A stretch of 63,748 bases of DNA, the filler included, from a bacterium (GTDB lineage: Bacteria; JAJRZV01): assembly GCA_024275095.1 (NCBI GenBank). It is 6 parts of 6 records of this genome, joined end to end, with 100 filler letters (N's around TTAATTAATTAA, not from the genome) between each part and the next. Parts side by side here need not be neighbours in the genome. Positions count along the whole stretch, not along the records: positions 17,298 to 23,988 come from JAJRZV010000061.1; 5 more parts are not named here. One strand, given 5' to 3'. How positions within the stretch are numbered: position 1 is the stretch's first letter; each line of letters opens with the position of its first letter. A program made the position numbers and the translations under genes. This document shows, piece after piece, positions 17,198 through 24,088 of this stretch. The notes under the pieces were generated by a model. That model had not been told where the DNA came from, did not search any database, and was given only the letters and a program-made list of their open reading frames with translations.

Positions 17198-17297
17198 NNN
17201 NNNNNNNNNNNNNNNNNNNNNNNNNNNNNNNNNNNNNNNNNTTAATTAATTAANNNNNNNNNNNNNNNNNNNNNNNNNNNNNNNNNNNNNNNNNNNN
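17198..17297. other. Artificial contig linker
   Basis: 100 nt of N with a central TTAATTAATTAA (stops in all frames). Confidence 0.98.
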
Positions 17298-18211: not shown

Positions 18212-18257
18212 TTGACAATAATTTAGGGTTTGCCTAAAATTTTAGGCAAACCTAAAT
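18212..18257 (+). promoter_or_regulatory. Sigma-70 promoter overlapped by a double DtxR/MntR-type operator
   Basis: TTGACA-N17-TAAAAT. ATTTAGGGTTTGCCTAAAA and TTTTAGGCAAACCTAAAT form an inverted pair, each a TTAGG-N4/5-CCTAA box. Confidence 0.85.
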
Positions 18258-18274
18258 ATTGGAGGAAAGAAAAA

Positions 18275-18802
18275 ATGATGGCGGAAGCACTCAGCGGTAG
18301 CCTGGAAGATTACCTGGAGGCGATATTTTTTATTGAACAGCAAAAACAGGCGGCACGAGCCAAGGACATCGCGCAGCGATTGCAGGTGAATCATTCATCG
18401 GTTACAGGCGCACTCAGGACTCTTTCTCAAAAAGGGCTTATCAACTACAGCCCCTATGACCTCATCACCCTTACAACAAAGGGCCGCAACGTGGCAAAAG
18501 ATATTGCCCGGCGCCACGAGGTGCTCCGGCACTTTCTTGAAGATGTGCTCGATGTTCCACCCGAACTCGCGGAGGAGACGGCATGCAAGATGGAACATGT
18601 TGTGCGGGGAGAGGTGCTGGAACGATTCGTGAAATTTATCGAATTTATAGAAGTCTCCTCCCGCGCCGGAGCCGGCTGGGTTCAGTGCTTCCATAAATAT
18701 TATTCCCGGGAATGGGATGAAGAAGAGTGCAAGAAATGCCTGGCCGGAGAAAAGGGGGTGAAAAAATCATGTCAGGAGGGGAGTACCGGTGATCACGGTT
18801 GA
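18275..18802 (+). CDS. DtxR/MntR family metal-dependent repressor
   Basis: LEDYLEAI, SSVT..L..L...GL, RRH..L..FL, ACKMEH; GGAGG upstream. Confidence 0.92.
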   Translation: MMAEALSGSLEDYLEAIFFIEQQKQAARAKDIAQRLQVNHSSVTGALRTLSQKGLINYSPYDLITLTTKGRNVAKDIARRHEVLRHFLEDVLDVPPELAEETACKMEHVVRGEVLERFVKFIEFIEVSSRAGAGWVQCFHKYYSREWDEEECKKCLAGEKGVKKSCQEGSTGDHG

Positions 18803-19043
18803 GCTGTCATCCTTAAAGCCCGGTCAAAAAGGACGTGTTGCCCGGGTTACAGGTGATGCGGCAGTGCGCAAGCGCCTGGTGGATATGGGTATCACGTCCG
18901 GAACAGAGGTAGAACTCCTTCGGGTTGCGCCACTTGGAGATCCCGTGGAGGTCAGGGTGAAAGGCTACTGCCTGTCCCTGCGTAAAGAGGAAGCGAAAAG
19001 TGTCAAGGTGGAAATCATATCGGAGGGGAACCGTGCCCGATGA
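18789..19043 (+). CDS. feoA: Ferrous iron transport protein A
   Basis: RLVDMGI, APLGDPVEV, LSLRKEEA. Confidence 0.93.
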   Translation: MITVELSSLKPGQKGRVARVTGDAAVRKRLVDMGITSGTEVELLRVAPLGDPVEVRVKGYCLSLRKEEAKSVKVEIISEGNRAR

Positions 19044-19278
19044 AAAGACCCAACCTGCACTGCGTTCTCTTCTTTCCGTGCCTGCCGGCCAGCAGGTGCG
19101 TGTTGTCCGAATTGACGGCGGTCGTGCAATGAGGTCGCGTCTTGCAGCCATGGGTCTTGTACGGGGTGCGGAGGTGGAGGTGGTGCGCAACAGCGGGCAC
19201 GGCCCTTTTATCGTTTCTGTGAAGGGTAGCCGTATCATCCTGGGAAAGGGCATGGCCTCCAGAGTGTATGTGGAGTGA
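19033..19278 (+). CDS. feoA: Ferrous iron transport protein A (second copy)
   Basis: RLAAMGL..G, GPFIV.V.GSR..LG.GMA; GTG start after GGAGG. Confidence 0.9.
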   Translation: MPDEKTQPALRSLLSVPAGQQVRVVRIDGGRAMRSRLAAMGLVRGAEVEVVRNSGHGPFIVSVKGSRIILGKGMASRVYVE

Positions 19279-19357: not shown

Positions 19358-21508
19358 ATGGCGGAGAGAAAGGTGATCACTGTTGCTATCGCCGGCAATC
19401 CCAATGCAGGCAAGACCACAATTTTCAACCATCTTACCGGGGCACGCCAGCATGTTGGCAACTATCCGGGCGTTACTGTGGAAAAGAAAGAGGGACTGCT
19501 GCGCCGGGGAGACATCGAGATCCGCGTGATAGACCTGCCCGGCACGTACAGCCTTACGGCGTACTCTGTTGAGGAGCTCATTGCCAGAAACGTGGTGCTG
19601 GAGGAAAAACCCGACGTGGTGGTGGATGTGGTTGATGCCTCCAACCTGGAGCGCAATCTCTACCTGGCAGTGCAGTTCATGGAACTGGGTGTTCCACTGG
19701 TTCTGGCGTTCAACATGAGTGACATTGCGCGTGCGCGAGGAATGGAGATAGACACTCAAAAGCTCTCGCGTCTCCTGGGCTGTCCCATTGTCTCAACCGT
19801 AGGGCATCGTGGCCTGGGGATCAATGCACTGGTGGAAGCGATCGTAAAAGCATCCCGGGAGAGCATGCGCCCCGTACAGGTCCGCTACGGGCACGAAATA
19901 GAAACGGAAATCAAGAAACTCCAGGATGCAATAATGGCCTCCGGGCTCGTGAACCTGAATAAATATCCGGCGCGGTGGCTGGCCGTCAAGTTGCTGGAAG
20001 GCGATAGCGATGTACTTGCAAAAGTGCCTGGACCTATCGCCGCCGCATCTCAAGGGGCTCGCAATAGAATAGAAAATTTTTTCGGAGACCCCCCGGAGGT
20101 GATCATCGCAGAACAGCGTTACGGGTTCATCTCCGGCGCATGCCAGCAATGCGTCAGGAGGGCGAATGTTGAGGCACGCCACAACCTTTCGGACCGGATT
20201 GATTCAATCGTGACCCATCGCGTACTGGCGATACCCATTTTCCTCGCTTTCATGTACGGCGTGTTTTATTTCACCTTTGCACTTGGAGATCCTCTTGCAG
20301 ACCTTGGGGGGTCGTTTTTTGCCTTGCTGGCAAAGTCAATATCAAACCTGTGGCCTCCCGGGGTTCATAGTTCACTTCAATCACTGATTGTGGATGGCAT
20401 TATCGCAGGAGTGGGGAACGTGCTGGTGTTCATGCCCAACATACTATTTCTCTTTCTCGCCATTGCCGTGCTGGAGGATTCAGGCTACATGGCCCGGGCG
20501 GCGTTCATCATGGATAAAGTAATGCATCGCATTGGACTGCACGGAAAGAGTTTTATTCCGCTTCTGCTGGGTTTCGGATGCACCATCCCTGCCATCATGG
20601 CCACACGGACCCTGGAGAATCGTCGCGACCGCCTGACCACGATACTTGTTGCTCCCCTCATGAGCTGCGGAGCGCGCCTTCCCATTTATGCTCTTATCAT
20701 TCCTGCCTTTTTTCCCCGGAACTGGCAAGCTCCTGTGTTGTGGAGCATTTATCTCATCGGCATCATCCTGGCAGTGGTGAGTGCCAAGCTGTTGAGGTCA
20801 ACTCTTTTTCGCGGGGAGGCAGAGCCCTTTGTTATGGAACTCCCACCTTACCGCCTGCCCACGTTAAAAAGTCTCCTTCTTCACATGTGGGAGCGTTCCG
20901 CACTTTACCTGCGTAAGGCCGGCACTATTATCTTGGGGCTGTCCGTGCTTTTGTGGGCCATGAGTTCCTACCCTGAAAAGCCGGGATTGGAACAGCGCTA
21001 TGCAGCCGAAGTGTCCCGGGTGAAGAAGGAATGTGTAGTGAAGCAACTGGATCCGGAAGAATGCCAGAGGAAGGTGGCGGAGCTCGAGCACTCGCGCCAG
21101 AGCGAGGCACTGGAATATTCGCTGGCCGGCCGTGTGGGTCGTGCGCTTGAACCGCTGGTAAGACCCATGGGTTTTGACTGGCGCATTGCAACAGCGCTTG
21201 TCGGTGCTACTGCCGCGAAAGAGGTGTTCGTTGCCCAGATGGGCATTATGTATTCCATTGGAGAATCGGACGAGGAGTCGGAAGAACTGAGGACCCGCCT
21301 GCGGGAGAACTATTCCGCTCTTGTGGGATTTTGCATCATGCTTTTTTGCCTTATCAGCGCGCCGTGTGTGGCCACAATCGCCGTAACGCGGCAGGAAAGC
21401 GGTTCATGGAAGTGGGCTGTTTTTCAGTTCACCGGCCTGACATTACTCGCTTATGTGATTACTACTGTCGTGTATCAGGTGGGACGGGCGCTCGTCGCCG
21501 GAGGGTGA
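19358..21508 (+). CDS. feoB: Ferrous iron transport protein B
   Basis: GNPNAGKT, VGNYPGVTV, DLPGTYSL, LEDSGYMARAA, MELPPY. Confidence 0.97.
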   Translation: MAERKVITVAIAGNPNAGKTTIFNHLTGARQHVGNYPGVTVEKKEGLLRRGDIEIRVIDLPGTYSLTAYSVEELIARNVVLEEKPDVVVDVVDASNLERNLYLAVQFMELGVPLVLAFNMSDIARARGMEIDTQKLSRLLGCPIVSTVGHRGLGINALVEAIVKASRESMRPVQVRYGHEIETEIKKLQDAIMASGLVNLNKYPARWLAVKLLEGDSDVLAKVPGPIAAASQGARNRIENFFGDPPEVIIAEQRYGFISGACQQCVRRANVEARHNLSDRIDSIVTHRVLAIPIFLAFMYGVFYFTFALGDPLADLGGSFFALLAKSISNLWPPGVHSSLQSLIVDGIIAGVGNVLVFMPNILFLFLAIAVLEDSGYMARAAFIMDKVMHRIGLHGKSFIPLLLGFGCTIPAIMATRTLENRRDRLTTILVAPLMSCGARLPIYALIIPAFFPRNWQAPVLWSIYLIGIILAVVSAKLLRSTLFRGEAEPFVMELPPYRLPTLKSLLLHMWERSALYLRKAGTIILGLSVLLWAMSSYPEKPGLEQRYAAEVSRVKKECVVKQLDPEECQRKVAELEHSRQSEALEYSLAGRVGRALEPLVRPMGFDWRIATALVGATAAKEVFVAQMGIMYSIGESDEESEELRTRLRENYSALVGFCIMLFCLISAPCVATIAVTRQESGSWKWAVFQFTGLTLLAYVITTVVYQVGRALVAGG

Positions 21509-21512
21509 AGTG

Positions 21513-21704
21513 ATGTATGAAAACCTCATCGTGTGGGCTATCGTAGTTGTTTCAGCGGGCGGTGTGCTTATACGGCTGTTTCGTTTCTTTGCCAGTGGAG
21601 AAGGCGATGAAGAAAAGAGGGATGGGCGATCACAGGGCACTTCATGCACCACGTGCCCGTTTTCCTGCAATTCAACCACACGACGCAAAAGGAGTGATGG
21701 ATGA
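21513..21704 (+). CDS. FeoB-associated Cys-rich small membrane protein
   Basis: N-terminal TM helix and SCTTCPFSC, directly after feoB. Confidence 0.7.
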   Translation: MYENLIVWAIVVVSAGGVLIRLFRFFASGEGDEEKRDGRSQGTSCTTCPFSCNSTTRRKRSDG

Positions 21705-21886
21705 ACAACCCGCGCGTGCGTGTGAAAGGAAACGCATCAGAGCTTCGATGCCCCTGTCGCAGGCTCCTGGCAAAGGTTTCCGGCAGAGCCGTCATACTCA
21801 AGTGCCCGCGGTGTAAGCGGGAAGCAGTGCTTTTTGTTGAGGAACTAACGCGAACGGGGGAAGTTGAGGTGGTGTTCACCAGATAG
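21701..21886 (+). CDS. Mu Com-like zinc-ribbon protein
   Basis: ELRCPCRRLLAK...LKCPRCKR parallels Com's RC..C.KLL.K...I.CPRCKR; ATGA coupling. Confidence 0.7.
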   Translation: MNNPRVRVKGNASELRCPCRRLLAKVSGRAVILKCPRCKREAVLFVEELTRTGEVEVVFTR

Positions 21887-21954
21887 ATAAATAAAACACA
21901 GCGGCCAGCGGCCTTTTCGCGTCCAGAGCCCCATCACATAGAAAGGAGGATCAC

Positions 21955-22698
21955 ATGAAAAAAGGCTGCATTATCGCTGTGTTGATGTGGGGTGTGTTTC
22001 TTGTTCCGGGTGTGTACGCCGCCGACACTGTGGAAACATGGGATGTGGGTGCCACAGATGTGGACTTTTACATCGGCATGGAAGGTGTGGGCAGGGGAAA
22101 GATGGATCGGGGTTTCTATACAGACATGATGCTGGGCTACGGACTTATTCCAGGGCTCTCTTCGTACCTGGGTGTGTGCCTGGAGGGTGACGGTGTGCTG
22201 TCTGGTGGTTCCACGCTTTACGCGGGTGTTTTCGGTACCGTGATCGACTCAGATCACTTTGATGTGGATGTTTTCTTTGACACCACCCTTGAAGGAGCAC
22301 TTGCGGGAGTCCTCACACTCACCCCTGCTGTTGAACTGAACTTTGATGTGAAGCCCGATCTGGAGGCTGCAGGGGTCTACCTGCGTTTTGGTCTTCCCGT
22401 GCATGCTGGTGAAGACGCCGATGGCGTGAAGTTCCATCTGGAAGGAACCGCGGGCTTTTACTGGACTCTTTCAGAAGGTCACCAGGTTCTGCTTGAGTAT
22501 TCTTACTCCATTCATCCATTTCCCCCCGCTGGTAAGGGGCACGTGGAATCAGGAACTGTGGCACTGGGATACAATGTGTGCATCAGCGAAGCCCTGGAAC
22601 TGATCACAGAAGTGCATGCAAGTGCTCCCTGGGACAGCCCGGGTGAAGTTGGAGTCATGGTGGGTTTTATTGCCACACTGCCCTCGGTGCAGGAATAA
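21955..22698 (+). CDS. Exported acidic protein, probable outer-membrane beta-barrel
   Basis: Strong AGGAGG, signal peptide ending VYA, alternating beta-strand pattern. Confidence 0.65.
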   Translation: MKKGCIIAVLMWGVFLVPGVYAADTVETWDVGATDVDFYIGMEGVGRGKMDRGFYTDMMLGYGLIPGLSSYLGVCLEGDGVLSGGSTLYAGVFGTVIDSDHFDVDVFFDTTLEGALAGVLTLTPAVELNFDVKPDLEAAGVYLRFGLPVHAGEDADGVKFHLEGTAGFYWTLSEGHQVLLEYSYSIHPFPPAGKGHVESGTVALGYNVCISEALELITEVHASAPWDSPGEVGVMVGFIATLPSVQE

Positions 22699-22699
22699 T

Positions 22700-23662
22700 G
22701 GTAAAAGTTTTGACATGTACAGCCATCCCATTGATTCAGCGGGAAAAGTCGGTTTCCTGGGGCTCCACTTAAACAGAAGTGCGGCAGAGCTGTGCTCATA
22801 CCTCCAGCTCTTGCTGCACTCGCCCCCCTGTGTGTCCACATGTTCAGCAAGTTTTGCCGTGCTGCTCGGTACGCACTTGACTGCCCTAATGCCCTGTCAT
22901 TTGTGATGCAGTGTCGGAAGAAGTTGTTGGGCAAGGCCTCCACTCCCTTGTCCTTCCATCATTTGTATGGCAACAGGATGGAATGGTTCCGCACATTTCC
23001 TGGCAGAAAAAGGAGCGGAAGCCGAAAGTATCCTTTGAATGCCTGCCTCATACATCATGCTCACAATGTGCCGTTGTTGTTACTCCAGCCACCCTGCTTT
23101 TTGTCTCCTCAAAGGCGATGACAAACATTCGAAGTTATTGTGATGTCTCTGGCCCCCGTGGGCTGGAACGACGCCGCGTGGGAAATTTATCTGTTCCTCT
23201 GAAAGAGGTGCTTGTGGCAAAATCAATACATCCAGGGGAATACGAGAACGACGTGCCCTATCTTCAAACTTTCATCTCCGCTGTGCACCTGGGAAATGCC
23301 GAGGGGGCTCTGGAGGCAGCCATCACCTGCTCGGGTGAACGCTATCAAACGGGATGCCCCGTTATTGAACACCAGGGTGTCAGAAAAAACTGGTGGAGGC
23401 GAAAATGCTTTCCCATGCAACAGAGAGTTTTATTTATCGCACTGGTGTAGAAGAGCACAAAGAACTGTTTATCCGCTTGGCAGGAATGCTTTTCGAGTTT
23501 GCAGGCTCAAGCGCCGAAAGAATTACTCTAGAAGCAGTTGGGGGTGAGGGAAGTTACGGGTACATGGAAGACCATGGCATTGAGCGACGGTTCAGAGACT
23601 GTAAGGGCCTCCGGTGCATGGTGGGTTCGCACCTGGATGATATTCTCGCGTGGAAGAATTGA
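22700..23662 (+). pseudogene. Acyl-CoA dehydrogenase pseudogene
   Basis: LGNAEGALEAAI..SGERYQTG.PVIEHQGVR in one frame and GSYGYMEDHGIERRFRD in another; stops upstream. The 5' limit is approximate. Confidence 0.7.
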
Positions 23663-23988: not shown

Positions 23989-24088
23989 NNNNNNNNNNNN
24001 NNNNNNNNNNNNNNNNNNNNNNNNNNNNNNNNTTAATTAATTAANNNNNNNNNNNNNNNNNNNNNNNNNNNNNNNNNNNNNNNNNNNN
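23989..24088. other. Artificial contig linker
   Basis: N run with TTAATTAATTAA. Confidence 0.98.

Follow-up and report, generated by a model that had tools for sequence, protein, structure and literature searches.

Can an RNA-binding zinc finger of the type known from phage Mu control a bacterium's own metal uptake? The question is raised by a ferrous iron uptake (feo) operon in a bacterium of the lineage JAJRZV01 (assembly GCA_024275095.1), in which a gene for a 61-residue zinc-ribbon protein stands between the transporter genes and the gene for a secreted beta-barrel. We followed up a first-pass annotation that had read this arrangement as a non-phage counterpart of Com, the zinc-finger translational activator of the Mu mom gene, acting on the leader RNA of an outer-membrane metal channel. 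The stretch of DNA analysed, hereafter the window, is 63,748 nucleotides long, and all positions given below are counted along it.

We found that the protein is a Com-type finger and that a conserved RNA hairpin, which covaries between genomes, lies directly behind its gene. From comparison of these sequences we think it probable that a Com-type finger has been recruited into metal-uptake regulons, where it would bind the hairpin and switch on translation of an outer-membrane barrel. Bacterial iron uptake is under textbook transcriptional control by Fur or DtxR, and the known post-transcriptional layers comprise small RNAs and, for haem receptors, HemP-type proteins.

The zinc ribbon of the feo operon is a Com-type finger

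The start codon of the zinc-ribbon gene overlaps the TGA stop codon of the preceding 64-codon frame (ATGA, 21701-21704), which bears out the coupling to the feoB operon read at first pass; coordinates of this and the other features are collected in Table 1. The Pfam model PF10122 (Zn_ribbon_Com) matches the window protein with E 1.6e-4 and 21.5 bits, short of its gathering cut-off of 22.9 bits. A HMMER search of 1.84 billion representative sequences returned 53 relatives at E ≤ 1e-3, most of them 58-75 residues long; tandem pairs of fingers are present in 15 of the 53 listed. When 36 relatives were aligned, R16, C17, C19, L22, A24, C35, R37 and C38 proved invariant, and 24 of the 36 matched PF10122 at E ≤ 0.01. 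The profile built from this alignment was compared by hhalign with Com as given in the annotated record of phage Mu, and the two aligned over 31 columns covering the whole finger (probability 97.1%, E 5.2e-11), with a single gap that arises because the first knuckle is CxC instead of CxxC. The membership in the Mu-like Com family proposed at first pass is thus carried by the family profile, while the window copy, taken alone, stays under the Pfam threshold.

Searches with the single protein were less informative. A word-index protein search with the 61-residue query returned only the query itself, NCBIfam had no match for either the finger or the barrel protein, and a sequence search of the PDB found no Com-like chain, its best hit (E 0.0096) being an unrelated phosphatase. 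The predicted structure of the finger monomer is of moderate confidence (pLDDT 72.4), and Foldseek found nothing at E ≤ 0.001 with it.

A conserved RNA hairpin follows the finger gene

The spacer between the finger and barrel genes is 68 nt long (21887-21954), and no promoter- or terminator-like site was found in it. The finger gene therefore sits directly 5' of the barrel gene on one transcript, as a system of the com-mom type requires. The repeat words noted at first pass are in place, CAGCGGC and CAGCGGCC at 21899-21913 and the variant CAGAGCCCC at 21924-21932, and they are conserved. They had been taken for tandem single-stranded sites; instead they form the 5' and 3' strands of one covarying hairpin.

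In the DNA 3' of each finger gene the element consists, in order, of GGCC, NGNGGYC, a variable loop followed by RRYCC, and NGNGCC. The second and third units covary as base pairs, with the combinations GGC/GCC, GGU/ACC, GAC/GUC, AGC/GCU and GGA/UCC. In the window the hairpin is bulged, spans 21903-21930 and has eight base pairs (21903-21930, 21904-21929, 21905-21928, 21906-21926, 21908-21924, 21910-21923, 21911-21922 and 21912-21921), two one-base bulges, a one-by-one mismatch and a loop at 21913-21920. RNAalifold, given 17 sites, yields exactly the eight-pair bulged structure that we had drawn by hand. Across 34 distinct sites, 99.6% of the cells pair in an alignment that was fitted to the model and so favours pairing somewhat; registers slid against one another pair at 18-49%, and the covariation score was attained by none of 500 shuffles. 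Compensatory changes occur in four of the eight pairs (CG/UA/AU, GC/AU and, in the outer helix, CG/UA), and a G-U pair is tolerated. Sites outside the seed added further compensatory pairs, namely GGU/ACC in loci L079 and L080, the first in the outer helix, and GAU/AUC in L081.

A covariance model of the element finds exactly one site in the 2.45-Mb genome, the window hairpin. In 286 kb of loci from 46 sources, real sites scored 28.7-52.2 bits and everything else at most 16 bits, a margin that is not clean at its lower edge, since the later real site L079 scored 26.1 bits and two matches of 29-31 bits fell inside coding sequence. No hairpin was found by the model in 40 unrelated genomes. Twelve loci scanned against Rfam at E ≤ 1 produced no match, and the hairpin has no Rfam family. 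An origin of the motif as a repeat or mobile element was ruled out by its one or two copies per genome.

These data also bear on whether the element is an RNA structure at all, or a DNA operator for which the finger serves as a DNA-binding transcription factor. In favour of the latter, the element is partly two-fold symmetric, zinc ribbons are able to bind DNA, and the family goes by the database name 'Com family DNA-binding transcriptional regulator'. Yet all 50 model matches have the sense orientation of the gene that follows, and they fall between a stop codon or promoter and the next Shine-Dalgarno (SD) sequence, not at promoters; a G-U pair is tolerated; and the terminator stems and start-region folds that the element overlaps exist solely in RNA. 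Com itself, in the available account, binds RNA (PMC6483171). We consider a DNA operator very unlikely, and take the element to be a putative RNA operator of the finger.

Two other elements of the leaders deserve mention. The direct repeat ATCACAT flanks the SD of the window (21933-21939 and 21950-21956), as had been seen at first pass; it was not seen in the leader of locus L014. Leaders of the Myxococcus type (L041:1290-1400, minus strand, and L046:1770-1830) carry two more conserved stem-loops between the hairpin and the receptor start. The second of these, CCGGC-loop-GCCGG, overlaps the beginning of the GGAGGA ribosome site and varies from genus to genus in a compensatory manner.

The hairpin resembles the RNA target of Mu Com

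Systematic evolution of ligands by exponential enrichment (SELEX) with a Com finger is reported to have selected a bipartite target, GAG(N)2CC / CC(N)2-3GAG, symmetric about a variable stem of 3-4 bp, and the natural Com site is described as a small hairpin beside the translation-inhibition structure of mom (Nowacka et al., PMC6483171). Hairpins of the window type likewise present two CNGN bulges, within CC-N-G(A/C)G words on both strands, that flank a covarying 3-bp stem. Further, GCCUGCGA is common to the L014 element and the native Com 19-mer. Of the independent arguments that the finger would bind the hairpin, this likeness to the SELEX target is the strongest.

Binding would probably be by a dimer. 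The predicted finger homodimer has an interface score (ipSAE) of 0.48, against 0.00 for the best control, with at least 95% of contacts shared between runs and a pLDDT of at least 71; among proteins of solved structure, 20 of 30 homodimers and 1 of 23 single chains reached that score. The model lends some support to binding, and the two-fold layout of the hairpin would accommodate a dimer, a picture in keeping with the tandem fingers of some relatives.

The parallel with Mu com-mom extends to gene arrangement. In both, a homologous Cys4 finger of about 60 residues is encoded directly 5' of the gene it controls, or here would control, on one transcript, and there is a small hairpin with CC-N-GAG-type words; it lies beside a structure that hides the start codon, as reported for mom (PMC6483171), and in the window beside a predicted fold of that kind. 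The differences are as clear. Mu com-mom is a phage late operon and its target a DNA-modification enzyme, whereas the setting here is a chromosomal operon for metal uptake, controlled by a repressor of the DtxR/MntR, Fur or NikR type, and the proposed target is an outer-membrane barrel. The putative operator here is a longer bulged hairpin with two symmetric sites, and the first knuckle of the finger is CxC. The com and mom genes overlap in Mu; the finger and barrel genes here do not. The hairpin is also found here in leaders remote from the finger gene, and is sometimes paired with a terminator.

Finger and hairpin occur together ahead of outer-membrane genes

Loci were gathered first as relatives of the 247-residue barrel protein and then as relatives of the finger in Myxococcota genomes and in metagenomes; for the metagenome scan a narrower alignment was used, since the broad one had no sufficiently conserved stretch. 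Of 40 finger loci examined, 30 have the hairpin behind the finger gene in the same orientation, a set comprising the window, L014, L023, 24 of 29 Myxococcota loci and three of eight metagenome loci, and the expectation that the AGxGGCC repeat would be conserved behind homologues was thereby borne out. The five metagenome finger loci without it have phage-like or low-GC contexts. Only two of 15 loci of the barrel family have the hairpin, exactly the two that carry the finger gene.

The same association was seen at the level of genomes. The finger is present in 75 of 301 sampled Myxococcota genomes, as well as in other lineages, and 20 of 150 Myxococcota genomes have a hairpin match at E ≤ 0.01, 19 of them finger-positive. 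Two weak matches, in G151 and G064, lie inside coding sequence and were judged false. Among 40 unrelated genomes, the finger was found in one and the hairpin in none.

The genes behind the hairpin point in a common direction. In Myxococcota the finger-hairpin pair precedes a same-strand TonB-dependent receptor gene in 18 of 29 loci, and in one locus the receptor gene is divergent and a gene for a pyridoxal phosphate (PLP)-dependent decarboxylase lies downstream; elsewhere the downstream genes encode OprB and Porin_O_P porins or a 12-stranded barrel. The order of finger, then putative target, is also found in L014, L079 and L080, in addition to the 18 receptor loci. Fur-box-like sites, which match the Fur-box consensus at 14-17 of 19 positions, precede 22 of 36 leaders; the 35 control stretches all scored 12 or less. 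In one receptor locus (L081:3240-3470) a further frame of about 67 codons, with its own start, lies between the hairpin and the receptor gene.

Some hairpins stand away from any finger gene. Copies remote from it were found in G072, G064 and G181, together with a second copy in G173, and all sit in leaders just 5' of genes for signal-peptide proteins, most of these extra copies being preceded by Fur-box-like sites. Of the proteins scanned behind such hairpins, those of L064 and L074 are Pfam porins (Porin_O_P and OprB). In L023 the finger gene lies between fur and feoA and is followed by the hairpin, and a second copy stands directly 5' of the barrel gene. The remote and second copies fit a regulator that would act in trans on several targets.

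Could the hairpin instead act without the finger, as a processing, stabilising or pausing signal, with the Cys4 protein doing other work such as metal handling for Feo or the receptors? Cys4 sites can bind iron as well as zinc, the finger is translationally coupled to a Cys-rich Feo-associated membrane protein, and five finger loci have no hairpin nearby. However, 19 of 20 genomes with a hairpin match are finger-positive (75 of 301 overall), the 13 porin loci that lack a finger gene also lack the hairpin, and the finger adjoins TonB-dependent receptors, porins and a cbiMQO operon, not Feo alone. The bulges, moreover, resemble the experimentally defined Com target as reported (PMC6483171). We regard such independence as very unlikely, and keep to finger and hairpin as the two halves of one proposed regulatory pair.

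Low-GC relatives of the finger (ELRCLCNRLL...; L082:2082-2400 and L083:75-700) are followed by a different hairpin that has GAGGCC-type words, and the next gene encodes a signal-peptide protein in L082 and a large secreted protein in L083. These may be a separate branch of the same principle.

Two leader designs favour activation

We then considered in which direction the finger might act. The window leader, folded together with the first 30 nt of the barrel gene, adopts a predicted structure (Table 1) that none of 200 shuffles equalled in stability. Here 21895-21904 pairs with 21974-21983 and 21908-21917 with 21960-21969, so that the 5' half of the hairpin region is bound to barrel codons 2-10; CGU at 21920-21922 pairs with the AUG at 21955-21957, and CCCC at 21929-21932, part of the third repeat, pairs with G's of the SD (21945-21949). 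This fold and the hairpin are mutually exclusive. The first-pass annotation had proposed a different anti-SD pairing, between CCTTTTC (21912-21918) and GAAAGG (21941-21946, in the SD). Both words are present, and the pairing is absent from the predicted fold, in which CCUUUU pairs with codons 2-5. Four homologous leaders show no significantly stable counterpart of the window fold.

In other leaders the hairpin meets a terminator instead. A terminator-like stem with a U run shares at least 6 bases with the 3' strand of the hairpin in L036, L047, L071 and L025. Because the start-hiding fold of the window and the terminator overlap are two separate designs in which a stabilised hairpin would mean expression, they favour activation by the finger, as far as predicted folds can tell.

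We also weighed the opposite sign, in which the same finger-hairpin pair represses: a finger bound 24 nt 5' of the start codon would hinder the 30S subunit or promote decay, and would provide negative feedback that caps synthesis of the outer-membrane channel once the operon is strongly expressed. In the five porin-type leaders, 19-29 nt separate the end of the hairpin from the start codon, a distance that the ribosome footprint can span; forcing the hairpin lowers the predicted accessibility of the SD or AUG in several leaders (for example L080, L046 and L027); and the other porin leaders have no significant inhibitory fold that would need opening. Against this, both leader designs predict that a stabilised hairpin means on, and Com, the sole studied member in the account available, activates (PMC6483171). 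Repression thus appears unlikely, as does the feedback role that goes with it.

Several observations weigh against the activation proposal, or against the steps that lead to it. The homologous porin leaders L014, L079, L080 and L023b are not significantly stable (z 0.08, -1.38, -1.59 and +0.81), and so an unmasking step is supported for the window locus only; in the best folds of three of these four the C-rich strand does pair with the SD. The hairpin is weak alone, and in 21 leaders forcing it costs 1.4-24 kcal/mol and shifts predicted SD/AUG accessibility in no consistent direction, a measure that we dropped as support. Four of the eight hairpin pairs show no variation, and the E-values of the covariance model are rough. 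The window finger is 1.4 bits short of the PF10122 cut-off, and its first knuckle is CxC where Mu Com has CxxC. At five of the 29 finger loci in Myxococcota the nearest 1.5 kb holds no hairpin, and, assuming that the 150 genomes form the first half of the 301, seven finger-positive genomes have no hairpin match; many of the Myxococcota genomes are close kin, so that the counts overstate independence. Lastly, the contig that bears the window locus is 6.7 kb long, in an assembly of 136 contigs.

The activation proposal can be put as a sequence of steps. The finger would be made from the same DtxR/MntR-controlled transcript as FeoAB and, probably in dimeric form, would bind the bulged hairpin that the RNA adopts directly after the stop codon of the finger gene. 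Left free, the window leader would prefer the other fold, in which the 5' half of the hairpin is engaged with codons 2-10 and the 3' C-run with the SD. A finger that captured the hairpin during transcription would lock it, free the start region and turn on barrel translation, after the model of Com. The outer-membrane channel would then be produced only once the inner-membrane system and the finger protein had accumulated. In relatives whose hairpin overlaps the foot of a terminator, binding would give read-through, and extra hairpin copies in other leaders would constitute a small regulon acting in trans.

The barrel protein is a candidate outer-membrane metal route

The gene after the spacer, called a probable beta-barrel gene at first pass, indeed encodes a 247-residue protein with a signal peptide and a 12-stranded predicted barrel. 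A search at E ≤ 0.01 returned 62 relatives in addition to the protein itself, all without a family name, and the protein matches no Pfam or NCBIfam family at E ≤ 1, the KdgM/NanC porins included. The mature chain of the family begins with a nearly invariant ADTVETW. The AlphaFold model (pLDDT 88.4, 12 long strands) retrieved NanC (template modelling (TM) scores 0.67/0.79) and KdgM (0.64/0.91) in Foldseek, with FapF and OmpG also similar. In predicted fold and size the protein is therefore like the 12-stranded monomeric porins NanC and KdgM. Its gene partners differ: NanC/KdgM porins pair with sugar-acid genes, whereas the partners here are feoAB or cbiMQO/nikR.

That partnership is regular. 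Among 15 species-genome loci, feoA-feoB lies directly 5' of the barrel gene in 12, and in 12 a small Cys-rich membrane protein accompanies feoA-feoB ahead of it; in L080 the partners are CbiM, CbiQ, an ATP-binding cassette (ABC) ATPase and a divergent NikR. These neighbourhoods make the family a plausible candidate for an outer-membrane route for ferrous iron or for nickel/cobalt. In P0041, P0059 and L021:366-1292 a PF12669-like Cys-rich protein and the barrel share one open frame with no stop between them, which would reflect either true fusions or an internal start.

Layout of the window operon

The locus occupies the contig at 17298-23988 (JAJRZV010000061.1; 6,691 bases), which is joined to its neighbours in the window by runs of N with a TTAATTAATTAA linker (for example 17198-17297 and 23989-24088). 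Because the window is such a chain of contigs, its other parts give the feo contig no genomic context; the G+C content of the feo contig, 0.52, is inside the span of the others (0.46-0.54). Every gene of the contig reads in the plus direction. First comes the end of a WCX-domain gene, then the promoter and palindrome and the repressor gene, followed by two feoA genes, feoB, the 64-codon membrane protein, the 61-codon zinc ribbon, the spacer and the 247-codon secreted protein.

The 26-bp palindrome is likely to be the operator of the DtxR/MntR-family repressor, to judge from its position and symmetry. Because it overlaps the promoter -10 just before the gene, the listed repressor start at TTG 18230 is doubtful and probably wrong; the true start is probably ATG 18275, past the promoter. 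The repressor scores under the cut-offs of the NCBIfam MntR and DtxR models. The 64-residue membrane protein has no Pfam match at E ≤ 1, PF12669 included, and no NCBIfam match, although it resembles the PF12669 proteins in build as well as in position; proteins in the same position match PF12669 in three of six other loci tested, one of them over the cut-off. Downstream of the barrel gene, about 950 bases (22699-23650) hold short overlapping frames without a convincing intact gene, and a frame with a twin-arginine-like signal peptide begins at 23650 and runs off the contig.

Table 1. Features of the feo contig in window coordinates (E, expectation value; MFE, minimum free energy)
Feature	Position	Strand	Evidence or remark
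Promoter-like site TTGACA-17-TAAAAT	18212-18240	+	Best promoter-like site
Perfect 26-bp palindrome, putative operator	18227-18252	+	Overlaps promoter -10, just 5' of DtxR/MntR-family gene
DtxR/MntR-family metal-dependent repressor gene	18230-18802	+	PF01325 E 1.6e-13, PF02742 E 8.5e-18
Two feoA genes	18789-19043 and 19000-19278	+	PF04023, E 2.8e-25 and 1.2e-21
feoB, ferrous iron transporter	19358-21508	+	TIGR00437 608.9 bits (cut-off 315.65); Pfam FeoB_N, Gate, FeoB_Cyto, FeoB_C
64-residue membrane protein, Cys-rich tail	21510-21704	+	Position of FeoB-associated Cys-rich protein
Com-type Cys4 zinc-finger protein, 61 residues (C17, C19, C35, C38)	21701-21886	+	RCPC...LLAK...KCPRCKR
Predicted alternative fold hiding start region	21895-21983	+	MFE -36.2 kcal/mol, z -4.30
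Conserved operator-like RNA hairpin	21897-21936	+	Covariance model 34.2 bits, RNAalifold
SD AAGGAGG and barrel start codon	21943-21949 and 21955-21957	+	Read in sequence
247-residue secreted protein, signal peptide, predicted 12-stranded beta-barrel	21955-22698	+	Small porin, unnamed feo-linked family

Comparable systems and significance

Small proteins that regulate outer-membrane receptors after transcription have a precedent. HemP/HmuP/ChuP is described as a small protein, encoded by the first gene of a Fur-repressed operon, that acts as a positive post-transcriptional regulator of receptors, its targets being the adjacent TonB-dependent receptor gene and a second receptor gene elsewhere (PMC9131926). 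The regulatory logic proposed here is the same; the families are unrelated, HemP/HmuP/ChuP being haem-binding and without a Cys4 site. The window finger had no match to that family, the Pfam matches at E ≤ 1 being PF10122 and two weak zinc-ribbon or other matches. We know of no shared RNA motif.

Com-like genes ahead of non-phage genes have been published. In Pseudomonas, Com-like mini-genes precede llpA bacteriocin, tailocin-cargo and levansucrase genes, and their role was said to remain 'to be explored' (PMC6240691). As here, these are PF10122-type mini-genes, often unannotated, directly 5' of non-phage or phage-derived exported-protein cargo; that account offers neither an RNA element nor a mechanism, and reports no connection with metal uptake or with control by Fur/DtxR (PMC6240691). 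A literature search that covered few subscription journals found no link of Com-type fingers to metal uptake and no description of the hairpin. The first-pass view that the system is uncharacterised thus holds for the metal-uptake link and the hairpin, and not for Com-like genes before non-phage genes as such. Its central picture is borne out in its parts: a non-phage Com-type finger and a conserved leader element stand before an outer-membrane barrel gene in a feo operon with a DtxR/MntR-family repressor, and would regulate that gene.

The broadest form of the proposal is a widespread post-transcriptional regulon in which Com-type fingers and the hairpin, beneath Fur, DtxR/MntR and NikR, would select outer-membrane import channels in cis and in trans, by start unmasking or antitermination, and in which, at its boldest, occupancy of the Cys4 site (zinc versus ferrous iron, or oxidation) would be the signal. 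We hold this to be quite unlikely. The metal-occupancy check suggested at first pass has nothing beyond the Cys4 site to recommend it, and we do not retain it. Should the boldest version be true, the finger would sense metal or redox state directly and tie the permeability of the outer membrane to the metal state of the cell.

The activation proposal has consequences of its own. If it is true, a phage-type RNA-binding zinc finger and its own operator hairpin would form a second, protein-based layer over metal import. Com, known from one phage operon, would gain a function in cells and a defined natural RNA target whose own covariation would make the binding rules of Com directly testable. The recurrence of the finger-hairpin pair ahead of outer-membrane metal-uptake genes in many bacteria points to a previously undescribed layer of control.

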